Of a stretch of DNA of 64,000 bases, positions 12,077 to 19,757 are shown in pieces (positions within the stretch are counted from its first letter, which is position 1; each line of letters opens with the position of its first letter). This stretch comes from Candidatus Latescibacterota bacterium (GTDB lineage: Bacteria; Latescibacterota; UBA2968; UBA8231), in NCBI GenBank assembly GCA_965219385.1, contig CBDCNM010000001.1, positions 546,631-610,630 on the forward strand, written 5' to 3'. Made by a program: the position numbers and the translations under genes. A model generated the notes under the pieces. It searched no databases. It was given only the letters and a program-made list of their open reading frames with translations, and was not told the origin of the DNA.

Positions 12077-14137
12077 ATGGATTACGAAAAACTCAAAGCA
12101 CATAAGACGGTTTTGTTGGATCTCTATACATCCTTGTGTAAAACCCTTAACAAAGAGGGTGATGAGATTGATCCAGGATTAAAAACGATGCGGAAAAATA
12201 TCAAAGAGGAAAAATTTTTGCTTGCCATTGTTGGAGAAGTAAAAGCAGGGAAATCGACCTTCATCAATGCAATTCTTGGAGAGGCAATGTTGCCTTTTGA
12301 TCCTCTGCAAGCTACCTCTGAAATAGTTGAGATCCACCAGTCTGAAAAGAAAGAAGTTCAAGTAACCTTCGCCAATGACACAGAGCAAGTCGTTGAGGAT
12401 GACCCACAAACACCCGAAAATGAAGCGGTGCCATTTCTTGAAAAAATTGCTTCCGTCAATGAGGAATACCGCGACATCCCCATCGTCCAAGTTAATAGAT
12501 TCCTGATTGATCATTACAGCAAAAAAGAGGGAAAGGCTGTATTTGAGGAGAAAAAATTGGAGAATTTCATTTCTGGCTCTGATCTTGAAAATATATACAA
12601 ATTGGATGAAGAGGGATTTGGAGCCAAAATTCGTGAATATATCGAGAAGAACATATCATGTGATGAGATACCCCAAAGGGTTACTCTTGGTTATCCATAT
12701 GATTTTTCTGAGTTCAAGGGTTTCAGGCTTGTAGATACGCCAGGGATCAATGCGATTGGCGGAATAGAGAATCAAACGAAGGAGTTCATCAACCAGGCCG
12801 ATGCGGTTATCTATTTGCACAGAGCAGGTCAGCAAGAAAGTAAATCACTCCGCAATGCTTTAGATAATGAAATTCCTAAAAGGGTCCAAGGTCGTCTGAT
12901 ACTCGTCCTGACTCACAGAAGTACTACTGATGAACATGAGAGAATATTGGAGCAGACCGAGAGGCTTTATCCCGAAATCGGCTCAGATAACATCTTTTTT
13001 GTCGATGGTCTGACTGAGCTACATTTGAAAGCGTTCTATGAAAAATCGATGAATGAAATCGATATCATTCGTAAAAAAGACCCGCAAGTAAGACGTCTAA
13101 CTAATGATTGCTTTATGGAAGCTGATGGTAATGAACATGCTTTTCTCAAGCTATTCGAAGAGCAGGCGAACTTCACCGAGATTCGGGAAAGAATTGCAAG
13201 AGATGCACAAAATTCAGCTTCTAGCCAAATGAAGGATTTCGTTAGTGCCATGAAAGAGGAGTATGAAGTTCTTGACCATAGAATTAGCGAACGCATAAAA
13301 CCGCTGAAAATGAAGCATAAGGATCCTCAGTCTTTTGCATCGGATATACAAAAAATAACAGAAGAAATGAATAGAATGAGAAGTAATTACAATGAATTTA
13401 CAGACAAATTGAGGGGAGAATTCTCTCCTAAAGATAGGAACAGCAGGTATTATCAAGAAATACATCAAATAGTGAATAGTTTTAGTGATGAGATCAACAC
13501 GAAAGAATTTGATCACGACCATAACGCAGAAACTGTCCAGTCTTATGTGGATAAATTATACCAAGATTTTGATGATAAAATGACCAATTTTGTTGATTCA
13601 CTAAAAAAAGACTTCCAAGAAGAAATAGCGGATAGGAATGTTGAAATGCAAAGTGATTACTCAATAACCGTGCCGAAGCTCCCATTGCAGCGCATAGTGC
13701 AAAAAGCTCTTGATAGTACTATGGAAGCTATAAATAAGCAATTAGACGAGGTGGAGAAGAGTAAAGGATTTGGGTACTATTTGGGTAACATTTTTTTTGG
13801 TATTCCCTATCTTTTAAAAGAGAGCGAAAAAGACAAGATAAAGGGTTCCGAGCTACCAAAGTATTGGCAAAAGATACAATCGGAGCTTGAAACAAATTGC
13901 CGAAAGGGTGAAACACAATTGCAGAAAGAAATCGATGCGATGGTAAATAATTTCTGCGGCGAATATCAGCGTAAACTCAAGGGAGAATTTCAGGAGCGAC
14001 AGCGGTTTATGGAAGAACTTGAGGAGGGAAAGGAAACAAATGAAAAATTAAGAGATGAGATTTCATCCCTGGAGGAGCAAAAAAAAACTATCAAGGCCAA
14101 CATTAAGAAGTGTGTAAAAGTCGGAGGGGAATTGTGA
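12077..14137 (+). CDS. Bacterial dynamin-like GTPase
   Basis: G1 LAIVGEVKAGKSTFINAILG; G3 LVDTPG; long helical C-terminus with a hydrophobic paddle (GFGYYLGNIFFGIPYLL); GAGGA RBS; AT-rich. Confidence 0.88.
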   Translation: MDYEKLKAHKTVLLDLYTSLCKTLNKEGDEIDPGLKTMRKNIKEEKFLLAIVGEVKAGKSTFINAILGEAMLPFDPLQATSEIVEIHQSEKKEVQVTFANDTEQVVEDDPQTPENEAVPFLEKIASVNEEYRDIPIVQVNRFLIDHYSKKEGKAVFEEKKLENFISGSDLENIYKLDEEGFGAKIREYIEKNISCDEIPQRVTLGYPYDFSEFKGFRLVDTPGINAIGGIENQTKEFINQADAVIYLHRAGQQESKSLRNALDNEIPKRVQGRLILVLTHRSTTDEHERILEQTERLYPEIGSDNIFFVDGLTELHLKAFYEKSMNEIDIIRKKDPQVRRLTNDCFMEADGNEHAFLKLFEEQANFTEIRERIARDAQNSASSQMKDFVSAMKEEYEVLDHRISERIKPLKMKHKDPQSFASDIQKITEEMNRMRSNYNEFTDKLRGEFSPKDRNSRYYQEIHQIVNSFSDEINTKEFDHDHNAETVQSYVDKLYQDFDDKMTNFVDSLKKDFQEEIADRNVEMQSDYSITVPKLPLQRIVQKALDSTMEAINKQLDEVEKSKGFGYYLGNIFFGIPYLLKESEKDKIKGSELPKYWQKIQSELETNCRKGETQLQKEIDAMVNNFCGEYQRKLKGEFQERQRFMEELEEGKETNEKLRDEISSLEEQKKTIKANIKKCVKVGGEL

Positions 14138-14844
14138 TGGAACTTATTCATGTTGAGGGAATATTCTCTGATATAGAGTCTCTAGTACAAGAGATTAGAA
14201 CGTATTTCAGTGATCTGGACTCAGAGAATATAGAAAGCGAAATGTACGCGTCGAGAATTGCTAAAGAGTTGGTCGTTCGTATCGAAAATTTCAACGGCGT
14301 AATCGAGACAACATTACTTACATATTTGGACAAAGATGCGCGAAAACAGATTTCAGACTGGGAGATAGTAGATCAAAATCGGCACTATGATAAGAGAATC
14401 CGAGAAAATATCTCATCAAAAATTCATGAAGTAAATTCCTTTTCACCTAAAGTTTTTCCCAAGAAATACATCAAAATTGCCTCTGGCGTTGTTGCTGCTG
14501 GAGGACTCTATAGTGCTTTTTCAACTCCCGTTTCCTACAAAACAAAAGGTAATCATGTGGGCGATAGTGAGGGTAATGCTGTGAGTGGTGGTGAAAGCGG
14601 ACTTCATCTCACTTTTTCGGATTCCATTTTCTACTTGGGGATGTTTATTGTCGTTGTGGCAGCGGGTATATTTTTTTTGGTTCCCCGTGTCGTGGATAAG
14701 CACAATAAGAAGAAGACCTTAGAACAATTGGAGGCTTATCTTAGGGCGGTCGAGAAAAGATACAAAGAGCAGGCCCGAAAAATCATTGATGAATATGTCT
14801 CCCTATTCAACGAAATAACACCAGCGAAGAAAAAAGACGGATGA
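14137..14844 (+). CDS. Hypothetical membrane protein, translationally coupled to the dynamin gene
   Basis: TGATG stop/start overlap at 14135-14139; hydrophobic segments IASGVVAAGGLYSAF and IFYLGMFIVVVAAGIFFLV; helical flanks. Confidence 0.75.
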   Translation: MELIHVEGIFSDIESLVQEIRTYFSDLDSENIESEMYASRIAKELVVRIENFNGVIETTLLTYLDKDARKQISDWEIVDQNRHYDKRIRENISSKIHEVNSFSPKVFPKKYIKIASGVVAAGGLYSAFSTPVSYKTKGNHVGDSEGNAVSGGESGLHLTFSDSIFYLGMFIVVVAAGIFFLVPRVVDKHNKKKTLEQLEAYLRAVEKRYKEQARKIIDEYVSLFNEITPAKKKDG

Positions 14845-14928
14845 ATACCATGACAAAGCAAGTCAGCAAGCCGATGGAAAGGCTGAAATCCTTAAGAATA
14901 ACCCAAAAACCAGAGTAAAGTCTATCCA

Positions 14929-18791: not shown

Positions 18792-19342
18792 TGGTCGTTG
18801 AAACCGCGATAGGTGCGGCTGCGGCGGGAGGTATTGCTGAAGCCGCTATTGTGGAAGCCGCTGAATCGACGGCTGTTGAGAGCGTCGCCGAGTCCTCAAT
18901 AAGTGGGGCAACCGAGTTGAGTGAAACCCTTTCTACAATCCAGAAAGAGATTCCTCGAGAAGTCATCAACGAGAAGGTTGATGTGATGCTCCAGGATGAA
19001 GCTTTCCGTGCTGAGATTTTGGAAGCAACCTATCCTGATTTCTCTGAACATTGTAGATTTGAGACCCGACTCCACGAGGGACAATTCTTGGAAAGTGATT
19101 ATCAGCATTCCAAGTATTGTAACGAACAATTGAGCCAAGCTTATGAAAATGGCAGTCTCAATACAGAGCAATTCACAGACCGGCAACTAGAACAGATTCG
19201 TAATGGAGATAAGCCCGATGGATATACCTGGCATCATAATGAAGACCCAGGACGCATGCAGTTAGTAGATTCTGAAATACACGCTAGGACTCCGCATACA
19301 GGTGGTAGGAGCATTTGGGGTGGTGGAAGTGAAGCCCGATAA
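18791..19342 (+). CDS. HNH-fold WHH/colicin-DNase-type nuclease toxin
   Basis: C-terminal PDGYTWHHNEDPGRMQLVDSEIHARTPHTGGRSIWGG; TGATG overlap with the ATPase stop. Confidence 0.88.
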   Translation: MVVETAIGAAAAGGIAEAAIVEAAESTAVESVAESSISGATELSETLSTIQKEIPREVINEKVDVMLQDEAFRAEILEATYPDFSEHCRFETRLHEGQFLESDYQHSKYCNEQLSQAYENGSLNTEQFTDRQLEQIRNGDKPDGYTWHHNEDPGRMQLVDSEIHARTPHTGGRSIWGGGSEAR

Positions 19343-19358
19343 AAAAAGAGAGCATACT

Positions 19359-19757
19359 GTGAGCTTAAAGTGGAAATACGTCGAGCCATTGGACGAGAGC
19401 CAATTGTCTAAAATTGAGAAACATTTTGGCCTCAGCTTGCCGGAGGATTACAAAAAATTAATTGTGGAATGCAATCGGGGAAAACCCCTCTTAGAAAGGT
19501 TTGATACAGAACTTCAAAAGGAATGTGTCCTCGATTATATGATTGATCTTGAAGAGATGGTCACCATTGCCCAAGTACTCGCTTCTGAATATGGCGTCGA
19601 TAACCTGATCCCCATAGGACGAGATCCGTTTGGGAATCTAATCGCCTTTAAAATTGCAGGTGGGCAGATTGATTCGGTGGTCTTTTGGGATCATGAAGAA
19701 AATAAAATTTCTAAAATATCAGGCAGCTTTACTGAATTTCTGAGGAAGCTATACTGA
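19359..19757 (+). CDS. SMI1/KNR4 (SUKH) family immunity protein
   Basis: LSKIEKHFGLSLPEDYKKL, LIPIGRDPFGNLIAF and VVFWDHE...SFTEFL; directly downstream of the nuclease. Confidence 0.9.
   Translation: MSLKWKYVEPLDESQLSKIEKHFGLSLPEDYKKLIVECNRGKPLLERFDTELQKECVLDYMIDLEEMVTIAQVLASEYGVDNLIPIGRDPFGNLIAFKIAGGQIDSVVFWDHEENKISKISGSFTEFLRKLY

Follow-up and report, generated by a model that had tools for sequence, protein, structure and literature searches.

What do five adjacent genes encode that stand out as an AT-rich island on a Latescibacterota chromosome, one system or several, and what would such a system do for its host? The genes lie in a stretch of 64,000 nucleotides (nt) of Candidatus Latescibacterota bacterium (GenBank assembly GCA_965219385.1, contig CBDCNM010000001.1, positions 546,631 to 610,630), hereafter the window, at positions 12077-19757 and all on the + strand. 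They encode a dynamin-like GTPase, a membrane partner with a two-helix hairpin, a large ATPase with a predicted VirB4-like fold, a WHH nuclease toxin, and a SUKH immunity protein. Comparison across many genomes and metagenomes revealed that together they make up a single conflict system, mobile and self-contained, which seems to be undescribed, and which may either arm a tethered DNase inside the producing cell or deliver it to competitors. A preliminary description of the island, made from its sequence, had proposed such a system, and its individual claims are taken up below along with the results that bear on them.

Recurrence of the five genes as one unit

The association was examined from both sides, with locus open reading frames (ORFs) called by a simple longest-ORF rule. 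An alignment of ATPase homologs led to genome loci in at least a dozen phyla, 24 in all, and a dynamin homolog was located upstream in 18 of them; the six without one comprise three in which the upstream sequence is too short (L008, L010, and L015) and three distant loci matched in the ATPase domain only (L022-L024). Conversely, an alignment of the dynamin led to 78 metagenome loci, two of which lack a strong dynamin match and 21 of which end within 1500 nt of the dynamin gene. The partner and the ATPase genes directly follow the dynamin in 46 of the 55 loci with at least 1500 nt downstream, a count that includes many near-identical metagenome loci and in which relatives cannot be taken as independent. 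Four of the nine exceptions (L057, L060, L061, and L064) carry the dynamin and a two-helix partner followed by a PilM/FtsA-like actin-fold gene, a set that may represent a housekeeping cousin of the module; these PilM-type loci adjoin LpxD and prolyl-tRNA synthetase genes. The partner gene is located between those of the dynamin and the ATPase in almost every locus, and the toxin gene lies directly after the ATPase gene wherever a close-family locus offers at least 700 nt downstream (56 of 56 loci, the window included).

The dynamin, the two-helix protein, and the VirB4-like ATPase form one inherited unit. Over 39 loci, the pairwise identities of the dynamin, the partner, and the ATPase core are correlated with Spearman's rho of 0.76-0.89, a value that is descriptive and not a test because these loci are related to one another. 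The preliminary description had treated the five genes as one combination and had set against it a chance juxtaposition of the dynamin and HerA halves, here a dynamin pair that would have met a module of ATPase, toxin, and immunity genes on one island by accident. In the window, the two halves are indeed separated by a 671-nt insert, and this is what speaks for chance. The same gene order is found across at least a dozen phyla, however, the three machine genes diverge in step, and the insert is secondary. Chance juxtaposition is refuted by the co-occurrence in both directions (18/24 and 46/55 loci) together with the correlated divergence, and we leave it a vanishingly small probability.

The insert is bounded by a 45-nt imperfect direct repeat (14801-14845 and 15516-15560, 76% identical), which duplicates the ancestral junction of the partner and ATPase genes. 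It is recognized as secondary because its two ends carry copies of this old overlapping junction and because the partner and ATPase genes abut in other loci. The preliminary description had seen here a decayed gene carrying a miniature inverted-repeat transposable element (MITE), which agrees with what was found: a fragment of a gene whose paralog lies elsewhere in the genome (87-89% identical), split by a 137-nt MITE-like repeat at 15097-15233 with at least 40 further partial or full genomic copies. Contigs of four runs from two studies show the paralog form that skips 15097-15233, and the repeat is strongly folded as a single strand (z -5.05). In one other locus (L003), a homolog of the inserted gene is located downstream of the SUKH gene.

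Predicted VirB4-like fold of the ATPase

By sequence, the ATPase produced only sub-threshold Pfam matches (DUF87, 17.8 bits at a cut-off of 23.2) and no FtsK_SpoIIIE match at E<=0.01. Among the PADLOC models it matched mad8 (2.3e-16) and HerA (1.9e-13), the HerA models covering only residues ~760-883, and among those of NCBIfam it scored 30.8 bits with HerA_antiphage (cut-off 800), 39.5 bits with VirB4_plasma (cut-off 590, hence below the VirB4 threshold), and 3e-16 with CedD over residues 797-880. Its nearest relatives in the PDB by sequence profile are defense-system HerA proteins (8yho, 2.3e-11; 8xau, 7.2e-9). The residues of the Walker A motif (GLTGSGKTT, residues 514-522) and of the Walker B motif (EEAHR, residues 767-771) are invariant in 60 homologs.

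An AlphaFold2 model built from 60 homologs (mean predicted local distance difference test, pLDDT, 72.6) is composed of a well-predicted N-terminal half of VirB4 type (residues ~53-464), a disordered loop, a middle domain, the ATPase core (residues 474-867), and an extra helical C-terminal domain of 185 residues (893-1077). The loop (residues 233-333; nt 16251-16553) is rich in Gly, Ser, and Thr and partly hydrophobic, and its length varies from about 0 to 90 residues among homologs; it is the sole hydrophobic stretch in a protein without a clear transmembrane helix. The best Foldseek match of the model was TrwK/VirB4 of the R388 type IV secretion system (5.7e-11). In VIA-align comparisons, the highest scores were obtained with the C-domain of VirB4 (4ag5_A; Z 24.2, root-mean-square deviation 4.0, 324 residues aligned) and with that of DndH (7es4; Z 23.2, 316 aligned), while the N-terminal part of TrwK/VirB4 aligned with model residues 53-464 (8rtd_h; Z 14.2, root-mean-square deviation 3.9, 257 aligned) and 7o42_E with residues 52-846 (Z 15.9, 491 aligned). 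HerA and the coupling proteins TrwB and DotL scored Z 13-17, and FtsK and EccC about 8 (EccC 8.6). Judged by predicted fold, both halves of the ATPase resemble VirB4 and the protein is not HerA proper, and the HerA/FtsK identity given in the preliminary description had to be abandoned.

The VirB4 assignment of the N-terminal half derives from the whole-protein model. Modeled alone from 14 sequences, the N-terminal domain was poorly predicted (mean pLDDT 59.8) and found no Foldseek match at E<=0.001; its top VIA scores (an ESX-5 chain, Z 7.3; TrwK/VirB4, Z 6.8) fall in a range that is common for models without a true match, and its sequence profile found no relative in the PDB. Searched as residues 1-440, the N-terminal half collected 168 clusters at 50% identity, which are only the starts of proteins of the same architecture, apart from fragment-like shorter matches. 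More than 1300 ATPase matches were obtained among 8000 candidates scored, and a search of the ESM Atlas with an ATPase homolog returned only generic DUF87 clusters. Plasmid and phage collections held only distant relatives of the ATPase, below 40% identity. An Acinetobacter plasmid (L039) combines a WYL regulator with a distant ATPase relative and has no dynamin, and in cyanobacteria (L023, L024, and L040, including a plasmid) a distant DUF87 ATPase occurs with an Hsp70/MreB-like protein, a GTPase, and a small metallopeptidase downstream. Such distant relatives with other partners hint at a wider family of ATPase-centered systems.

The ATPase gene of the window also contains a perfect in-frame 18-nt tandem duplication at 17793-17828 (DLDSSD twice), which falls in an acidic, low-confidence loop of the model (residues 748-756).

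Exchange of toxin and immunity behind a constant handle

The toxin of the window matched Colicin-DNase (2.1e-25) and WHH (4.9e-19) in Pfam and bears the WHH motif. It is arranged as an N-terminal handle (residues ~1-80, nt 18791-19030) followed by an HNH-type DNase domain (nt ~19031-19324), and the immunity protein encoded behind it matched SUKH_6 (5e-20) and SMI1_KNR4 (8.6e-19). Across the 56 close-family loci, this combination of WHH and SUKH occurs in 16, LHH with SUKH-5 in 28, and a toxin class of ~185 residues without family assignment, followed by a ~107-residue protein with weak DUF7832 matches in some loci, in nine; the remaining three have other toxins (L077, which is followed by PoNi immunity, L012, and L119, with a weak homing-endonuclease match), all classes being called with local hidden Markov models trained on part of the loci they classify. 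Pfam agreed with the toxin calls for the loci submitted. SUKH genes lie downstream of the WHH and LHH toxins throughout, and only a few loci lack a gene of a known or candidate immunity family behind the toxin, while the four distant ATPase loci (L022-L024 and L120) are without these cassettes.

All toxins with a Pfam assignment are HNH-type DNases, of either the WHH or the LHH kind. For the ~185-residue class, the sequence profile found no relative in the PDB, and a conserved E...D...E-V-T motif could be read as that of a restriction-endonuclease-like DNase. Apart from the nuclease, no Pfam domain was detected in the toxins, nor was a signal peptide. What the classes share is a handle motif near residues 50-75, approximately P-x-L-x4-I-(E/K)-N-x-S-L-E-x-L-K-x-x-N, which is present in all of them and weaker in the clade of the window. 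None of 20 toxin N-termini matched a Pfam family (LXG, WXG100, and PAAR included) at E<=1, and each of three genomes tested encodes a single handle-bearing protein.

The C-terminal nuclease and its cognate immunity gene are exchanged together as a cassette behind this constant handle. The exchange is most directly seen between L052 (WHH) and L062 (LHH), in which the ATPase cores are 97% identical and the toxins 95% identical over residues 1-66, and only 12-20% beyond. Mapped on an ATPase tree of 39 loci, the toxin class requires at least 12 changes, the minimum possible being 3 and the mean of shuffled classes 19.2, and the identity of the handles tracks that of the machine genes weakly (rho 0.30-0.36). 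With at least four toxin classes behind a common handle and cognate immunity directly downstream, the island has the structure of a polymorphic toxin locus in the sense of Zhang et al. (2012).

The dynamin and its membrane partner

The first gene product matched Dynamin_N in Pfam (1.6e-18), with a GTPase domain at residues ~49-279 followed by a long helical or coiled-coil remainder in which, as in the rest of the protein, no hydrophobic helix was detected. By sequence it matched, in the PDB, the bacterial dynamin-like protein (BDLP) of Nostoc (2j68, 1e-9), and the PADLOC model LeoBC matched at 2.1e-18 over model positions 47-165 of 601 only. The G1, G2 Thr, and G3 elements (P-loop, switch threonine, and DxPG) are kept in 18-19 of 19 homologs, and G4 is degenerate, with no NKxD. 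The helical tail also gave weak matches to the PADLOC model ZorA (1.1e-4), which probably reflect coiled-coil composition.

The partner is built from an N-terminal helical cytoplasmic part, a two-helix membrane hairpin, and a short C-terminal helix. In the window protein, the hydrophobic stretch at residues 156-190 (ORF numbered from 14134) appears as one strong helix, and an alignment of 14 homologs resolves two hydrophobic blocks, that is, a hairpin. No family of Pfam, NCBIfam, PADLOC, or PHROGs matched the partner, and the PHROGs search returned nothing for the dynamin or the toxin either. The identities that the preliminary description had assigned to the dynamin, the WHH nuclease, and the SUKH protein are thus confirmed by Pfam, and that of the membrane partner by its hydrophobic hairpin.

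Distribution, genomic neighborhoods, and decay

The system spreads through hosts with one and with two membranes, among them Clostridia, Eggerthellaceae, Megasphaera, Fusobacterium, Gammaproteobacteria, and Latescibacterota. In the phylum of the window, the island was found in 13 of 168 genomes and three of 49 genera; a full-length ATPase was present in three of 40 relatives and a decayed copy in a fourth. In most genomes the island is AT-rich compared with its host, and transposase or recombinase genes adjoin the system in some loci. One complete copy lies on a viral contig of IMG/VR (L119).

An HTH-WYL-WCX regulator is encoded directly upstream, in the same orientation, in 13 of 44 loci, and WYL-type regulators co-localize with defense systems, as described in a part of Picton et al. 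(2022; PMC9122601). PADLOC was run on 132 flanking ORFs of 29 loci (the five nearest large ORFs, WYL left out, E<=1e-25 taken as strong), and a strong neighbor appeared in 10 of the 29 as a raw count, or in seven of 27 after two near-identical pairs were merged and one reverse transcriptase was dropped. In L046 (136-17278), the system is placed between the BREX genes BrxC and PglX on one side and Cas9 on the other, a textbook defense island; other defense neighbors are a dGTPase (1.7e-93, L050), a PDC-S02/REase (6.7e-137, L018), and NERD helicases. Eleos-type dynamin genes stand beside the system in L079 (14787-16898) and in L097 and L104 (1049-7588). Extra dynamin-like genes were likewise observed beside it in L075 (4633-7827), and a viperin-like radical-SAM gene accompanies the extra dynamins of L097 and L104. 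These additional genes may be separate Eleos-type systems or accessory parts.

Four Latescibacterota loci (L001, L003, L009, and L013) harbor the island at the same chromosomal spot, between PAPS reductase/HlyD and PALP/JAB genes, which looks like a hot spot. Three of the four encode WHH and SUKH, and the fourth (L009) encodes the ~185-residue toxin with its ~107-residue partner and an ATPase that is 43% identical. In relatives, the island decays stepwise: in G029 (L121) the machine is lost and the toxin frameshifted with the immunity gene intact, G036 (L126) retains toxin and immunity genes and no ATPase, and in G035 (L135) a deletion scar fuses dynamin codons 1-62 to SUKH codons 53-151.

A possible mechanism and its alternatives

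We infer every step of the mechanism outlined here and of its alternative below, including docking on the partner, handle binding, immunity stripping, and the nature of the trigger. A hexamer of the ATPase would dock on the cytoplasmic membrane from the inside, by means of the two-helix partner and its own N-terminal half of VirB4 type, in the manner of VirB4 on VirB3, and the dynamin would join it there and sense or shape a disturbed membrane. The ATPase would grip the N-terminal handle of the DNase, for which its extra helical C-terminal domain is a possible binding site, with the immunity protein holding the enzyme silent. The GTPase and the ATPase would be activated by a trigger at the membrane, for instance the injection of DNA or damage to the membrane itself, and an ATP-driven pull on the handle would free the DNase from the immunity protein. 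The released enzyme would attack invading DNA or, in an abortive infection, all DNA of the cell. Expression would be under the control of WYL regulators in the loci that have them, and the toxin-immunity cassettes would be ready-made modules taken from the polymorphic toxin pool.

We give about an even chance to such an anti-phage or anti-mobile-element defense, which arms a tethered DNase inside the producing cell. Rather unlikely in our judgment, though the main rival, is a new route of polymorphic-toxin export or delivery for interbacterial competition, in which the VirB4-like ATPase, seated on an oligomer of the two-helix partner, would recognize the toxin handle, strip off the immunity protein, and drive the toxin out of the cytoplasm, while the dynamin would remodel or reseal the membrane and the immunity protein would guard the producer and its kin; dynamin, two-helix protein, and ATPase would then be a minimal translocation machine derived from a type IV ATPase module and serving one- and two-membrane bacteria. 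Intracellular defense is favored because of the WYL regulators, the defense-island neighbors, and a host range independent of the envelope, because no component spans the envelope and the toxins, a single client per genome in the three genomes tested, have no Pfam domain beyond the nuclease, and because the Pfam-assigned toxins are all HNH DNases and the obligate dynamin has a precedent in defense. Against export, the operon lacks a channel-forming polytopic protein, a periplasmic or outer-membrane part, and a cell-wall enzyme, yet its hosts have one or two membranes; the toxins are small, with nothing that Pfam finds in their N-terminal parts, and the handles resemble neither LXG, WXG100, nor PAAR. 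Cytoplasmic dynamins constrict membrane necks that point into the cytoplasm, a geometry that fits outward vesicle release poorly. The absence of a signal peptide from the toxin, the copy on a viral contig, and the closeness of the ATPase core to the VirB4-like domain of DndH add to the case for defense.

Other observations weigh against defense, most of them in favor of export. To our knowledge, no defense system shows toxin/immunity swapping of this kind, here with at least 12 class changes on the 39-locus tree; SUKH and PoNi, both present, are immunity families against delivered toxins; and the exchange seen in L052 and L062, whose machines are nearly the same, resembles what competition among close relatives would produce. 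The ATPase is predicted to be VirB4-like in both halves (Z 24.2 and 14.2), with its top Foldseek matches in R388 type IV secretion, and its gene follows that of a two-helix protein much as virB4 follows virB3. Immunity homologs borne by phages are scarce: the phage collection held only distant SUKH homologs (32-34% identity, six records) and none of SUKH-5 or DUF7832 type, which leaves little support for a phage-driven arms race over immunity mimics. The Pfam-annotated flanks of 10 loci contain mostly housekeeping genes, no defense gene or WYL regulator was found near the island in the window, and one relative (G029) keeps the immunity gene after the loss of machine and toxin. Exchange of a C-terminal toxin and cognate immunity behind a constant N-terminus is, in the relevant part of Zhang et al. 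(2012; PMC3482391), a hallmark of exported polymorphic toxins; toxin export in type VII and type IV systems is powered by ATPases of the same superfamily, according to passages of the same work and of Zhang et al. (2011; PMC3113570); and defense islands can also house interbacterial effectors, as reported in part of a Serratia preprint (10.1101/2024.01.28.577318). A mobile-element addiction or competition module, in which toxin and immunity protein would stabilize the island while the dynamin and the ATPase would do another job for the element, for example DNA handling at the membrane (such as uptake, exclusion, or transfer), appears improbable. The relative with toxin and immunity genes and no ATPase (G036), the AT-richness and patchy distribution of the island, its transposase or recombinase neighbors in some loci, and the resemblance of the ATPase core to DNA-handling relatives such as CedD would agree with it, but a plain addiction pair has no need of a conserved toxin handle or of strict linkage to three large genes whose catalytic motifs are conserved, relaxase, integrase, or replication genes are never constant neighbors, and the handle co-varies, weakly, with the machine. 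Toxin deployment and an abortive infection restrained by the immunity protein, the two roles that the preliminary description had proposed, thus both stay live, and the evidence leans toward the second without settling it.

Layout of the island and its surroundings

The features of the island are compiled in Table 1. The start codon of the SUKH gene was picked from the sequence and from comparison with L003. As first described, the five genes are co-oriented and set apart by composition, with a GC content per kb of 0.37-0.42 at 12001-15000 and 0.45-0.48 at 16001-20000 in flanks of 0.61-0.67, and third-position GC (GC3) agrees, at 0.39-0.47 for the five genes and 0.75-0.84 for host genes. Both TGATG couplings noted at the outset can be read in the sequence, the dynamin/partner overlap with TGA at 14135-14137 and ATG at 14137-14139 and the ATPase/toxin overlap with TGA at 18789-18791 and ATG at 18791-18793. 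A Shine-Dalgarno-like GGAGGA lies upstream of the dynamin gene. In a consensus scan of the region for promoters and terminators, the number of sites was not above that of shuffled sequences; no tRNA or Rfam family was detected in the window, and att-like repeats flanking the island were not found.

Table 1. Features of the five-gene island in window coordinates.
Feature	Position	Strand	Product or description
Dynamin-like GTPase	12077-14137	+	686 aa; Pfam Dynamin_N
Membrane partner	14137-14844 (ORF 14110-14844, likely ATG 14137)	+	235 aa; two-helix hairpin
Secondary insertion	14845-15515	+	671 nt; host-like gene fragment ORF 15048-15503 with MITE-like repeat 15097-15233
VirB4-like ATPase (predicted)	15555-18791	+	1078 aa; AlphaFold2 fold match
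Toxin (WHH nuclease)	18791-19342 (ORF from 18788)	+	183 aa; Colicin-DNase/WHH
SUKH (SMI1/KNR4) immunity protein	19359-19757 (ORF 19302-19757, likely GTG 19359)	+	132 aa
Terminator-like GC-rich hairpin	20011-20032	both	right island end; from consensus scan only

Between the SUKH gene and the hairpin, a 13-nt unit is repeated three times head to tail (19917-19957). The flanks of the island in the window consist of glycoside hydrolases and transposase remnants. To the right, the regions 20700-22500 and 27941-28726 contain short ORFs of intermediate GC3, one of them with an HTH_21 domain (21454-21894), typical of remnants of IS3-type transposases, and further on a fragment of a DDE transposase; these features may be traces of the arrival of the island. 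Two tandem DUF4838/GH67N paralogs left of the island and four tandem paralogs of ~900 residues without a Pfam family together account for the regions 6725-11876 and 35964-46952, and CHU_C (type IX secretion signal) proteins at 31732-35890 adjoin the ~900-residue paralogs.

Comparison with known systems

The preliminary description had recognized no known system in this combination, and none emerged from our searches: PADLOC v2 models produced only partial single-protein matches, with no PADLOC system describing the set, and the literature, searched with most subscription journals out of reach, yielded no name and no description of a dynamin with HerA/DUF87 or with a polymorphic toxin/immunity set beyond generic reviews. 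The word "dynamin" is absent from Zhang et al. (2011), Kaur et al. (2020), and Picton et al. (2022), and from the first 300,000 of the 357,715 characters of Zhang et al. (2012). If the system serves defense, it would be the first to unite a dynamin and a VirB4-like motor of the secretion type with a nuclease restrained by a polymorphic-toxin immunity protein, and it would offer a testable model for turning a membrane event into nuclease release. If it serves export, it would represent a new interbacterial toxin secretion route, and the first with an obligate dynamin. Either way, a pool of polymorphic toxin cassettes is linked to a new machine, a large family of ~1050-residue proteins annotated as "DUF87/ATP-binding" gains a context, and the five genes provide a compact, portable unit for experiments.

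In secretion systems, virB3 precedes virB4. The island resembles this pair in the predicted fold of both ATPase halves and, by analogy, in the small two-helix hairpin protein encoded directly upstream, which from gene order and topology would play the role of VirB3. Unlike VirB4, the island ATPase has the disordered Gly/Ser/Thr loop and the extra 185-residue helical C-terminal domain and is tied to a dynamin and a toxin. The N-terminal and C-terminal ATPase domains that define the VirB4 family are recognized here by predicted fold only, with sequence models below threshold. Membership in type IV secretion was rejected, as no VirB6, VirB8-10, VirD4, relaxase, or pilin was found in or beside the operon in the window and the related loci. 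The core is as near to the C-domain of DndH as to VirB4, which places the ATPase in a clade used in defense; in contrast to DndFGH, Dnd partner genes are lacking, the N-terminal half matches VirB4 and not DndH, and the role of effector falls to a small separate DNase that has an immunity protein of its own.

Eleos (LeoA/LeoBC) shares with the island a dynamin-like GTPase with a conserved P-loop, the location on mobile islands, and defense genes that are sometimes adjacent. It consists of two consecutive dynamin-like genes only, an operon shown experimentally to be defensive, as stated in part of a preprint (Millman et al. 2022), whereas the island has one dynamin along with the partner, the ATPase, the toxin, and the immunity protein. 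Membership in Eleos was rejected accordingly: the window has one dynamin gene, LeoBC matches its GTPase part only, and LeoA does not match. SIR2-HerA and DUF4297-HerA likewise pair an ATPase of the same superfamily with a toxic effector, and in these systems the HerA ring assembles with its effector and controls it, according to portions of PMC11472057 and PMC11514289; they are without a dynamin, a membrane partner, or an immunity protein. The island was not assigned to them either, given its sub-threshold HerA score, its WHH effector, and a fold that scores Z 13-17 with HerA and coupling proteins versus 23-24 with VirB4 and DndH.

In Zorya and Kiwa, a membrane complex senses invasion and directs a nuclease or another effector. 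The likeness is one of concept, namely the design logic that the island would follow in defense; MotAB-like proteins and homologs of ZorC/D or KwaB are absent from it. Type VII LXG toxin loci have in common with the island a constant N-terminus, a variable C-terminal nuclease, a downstream SUKH gene, and a locus-encoded ATPase that belongs to the FtsK/HerA/VirB4 superfamily, and LXG-type loci with a dedicated ATPase and downstream SUKH are described in part of Zhang et al. (2011; PMC3113570). They differ in that the island ATPase is single-domain and without membrane helices, the dynamin is unprecedented, and many hosts have two membranes, and type VII membership was discarded with no FtsK_SpoIIIE match, a Z of only 8.6 with EccC, and none of 20 N-termini of LXG or WXG100 type. 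Taken against these relatives, the set is either a polymorphic-toxin locus with an undescribed machine or, equally, an undescribed defense system assembled from known parts.

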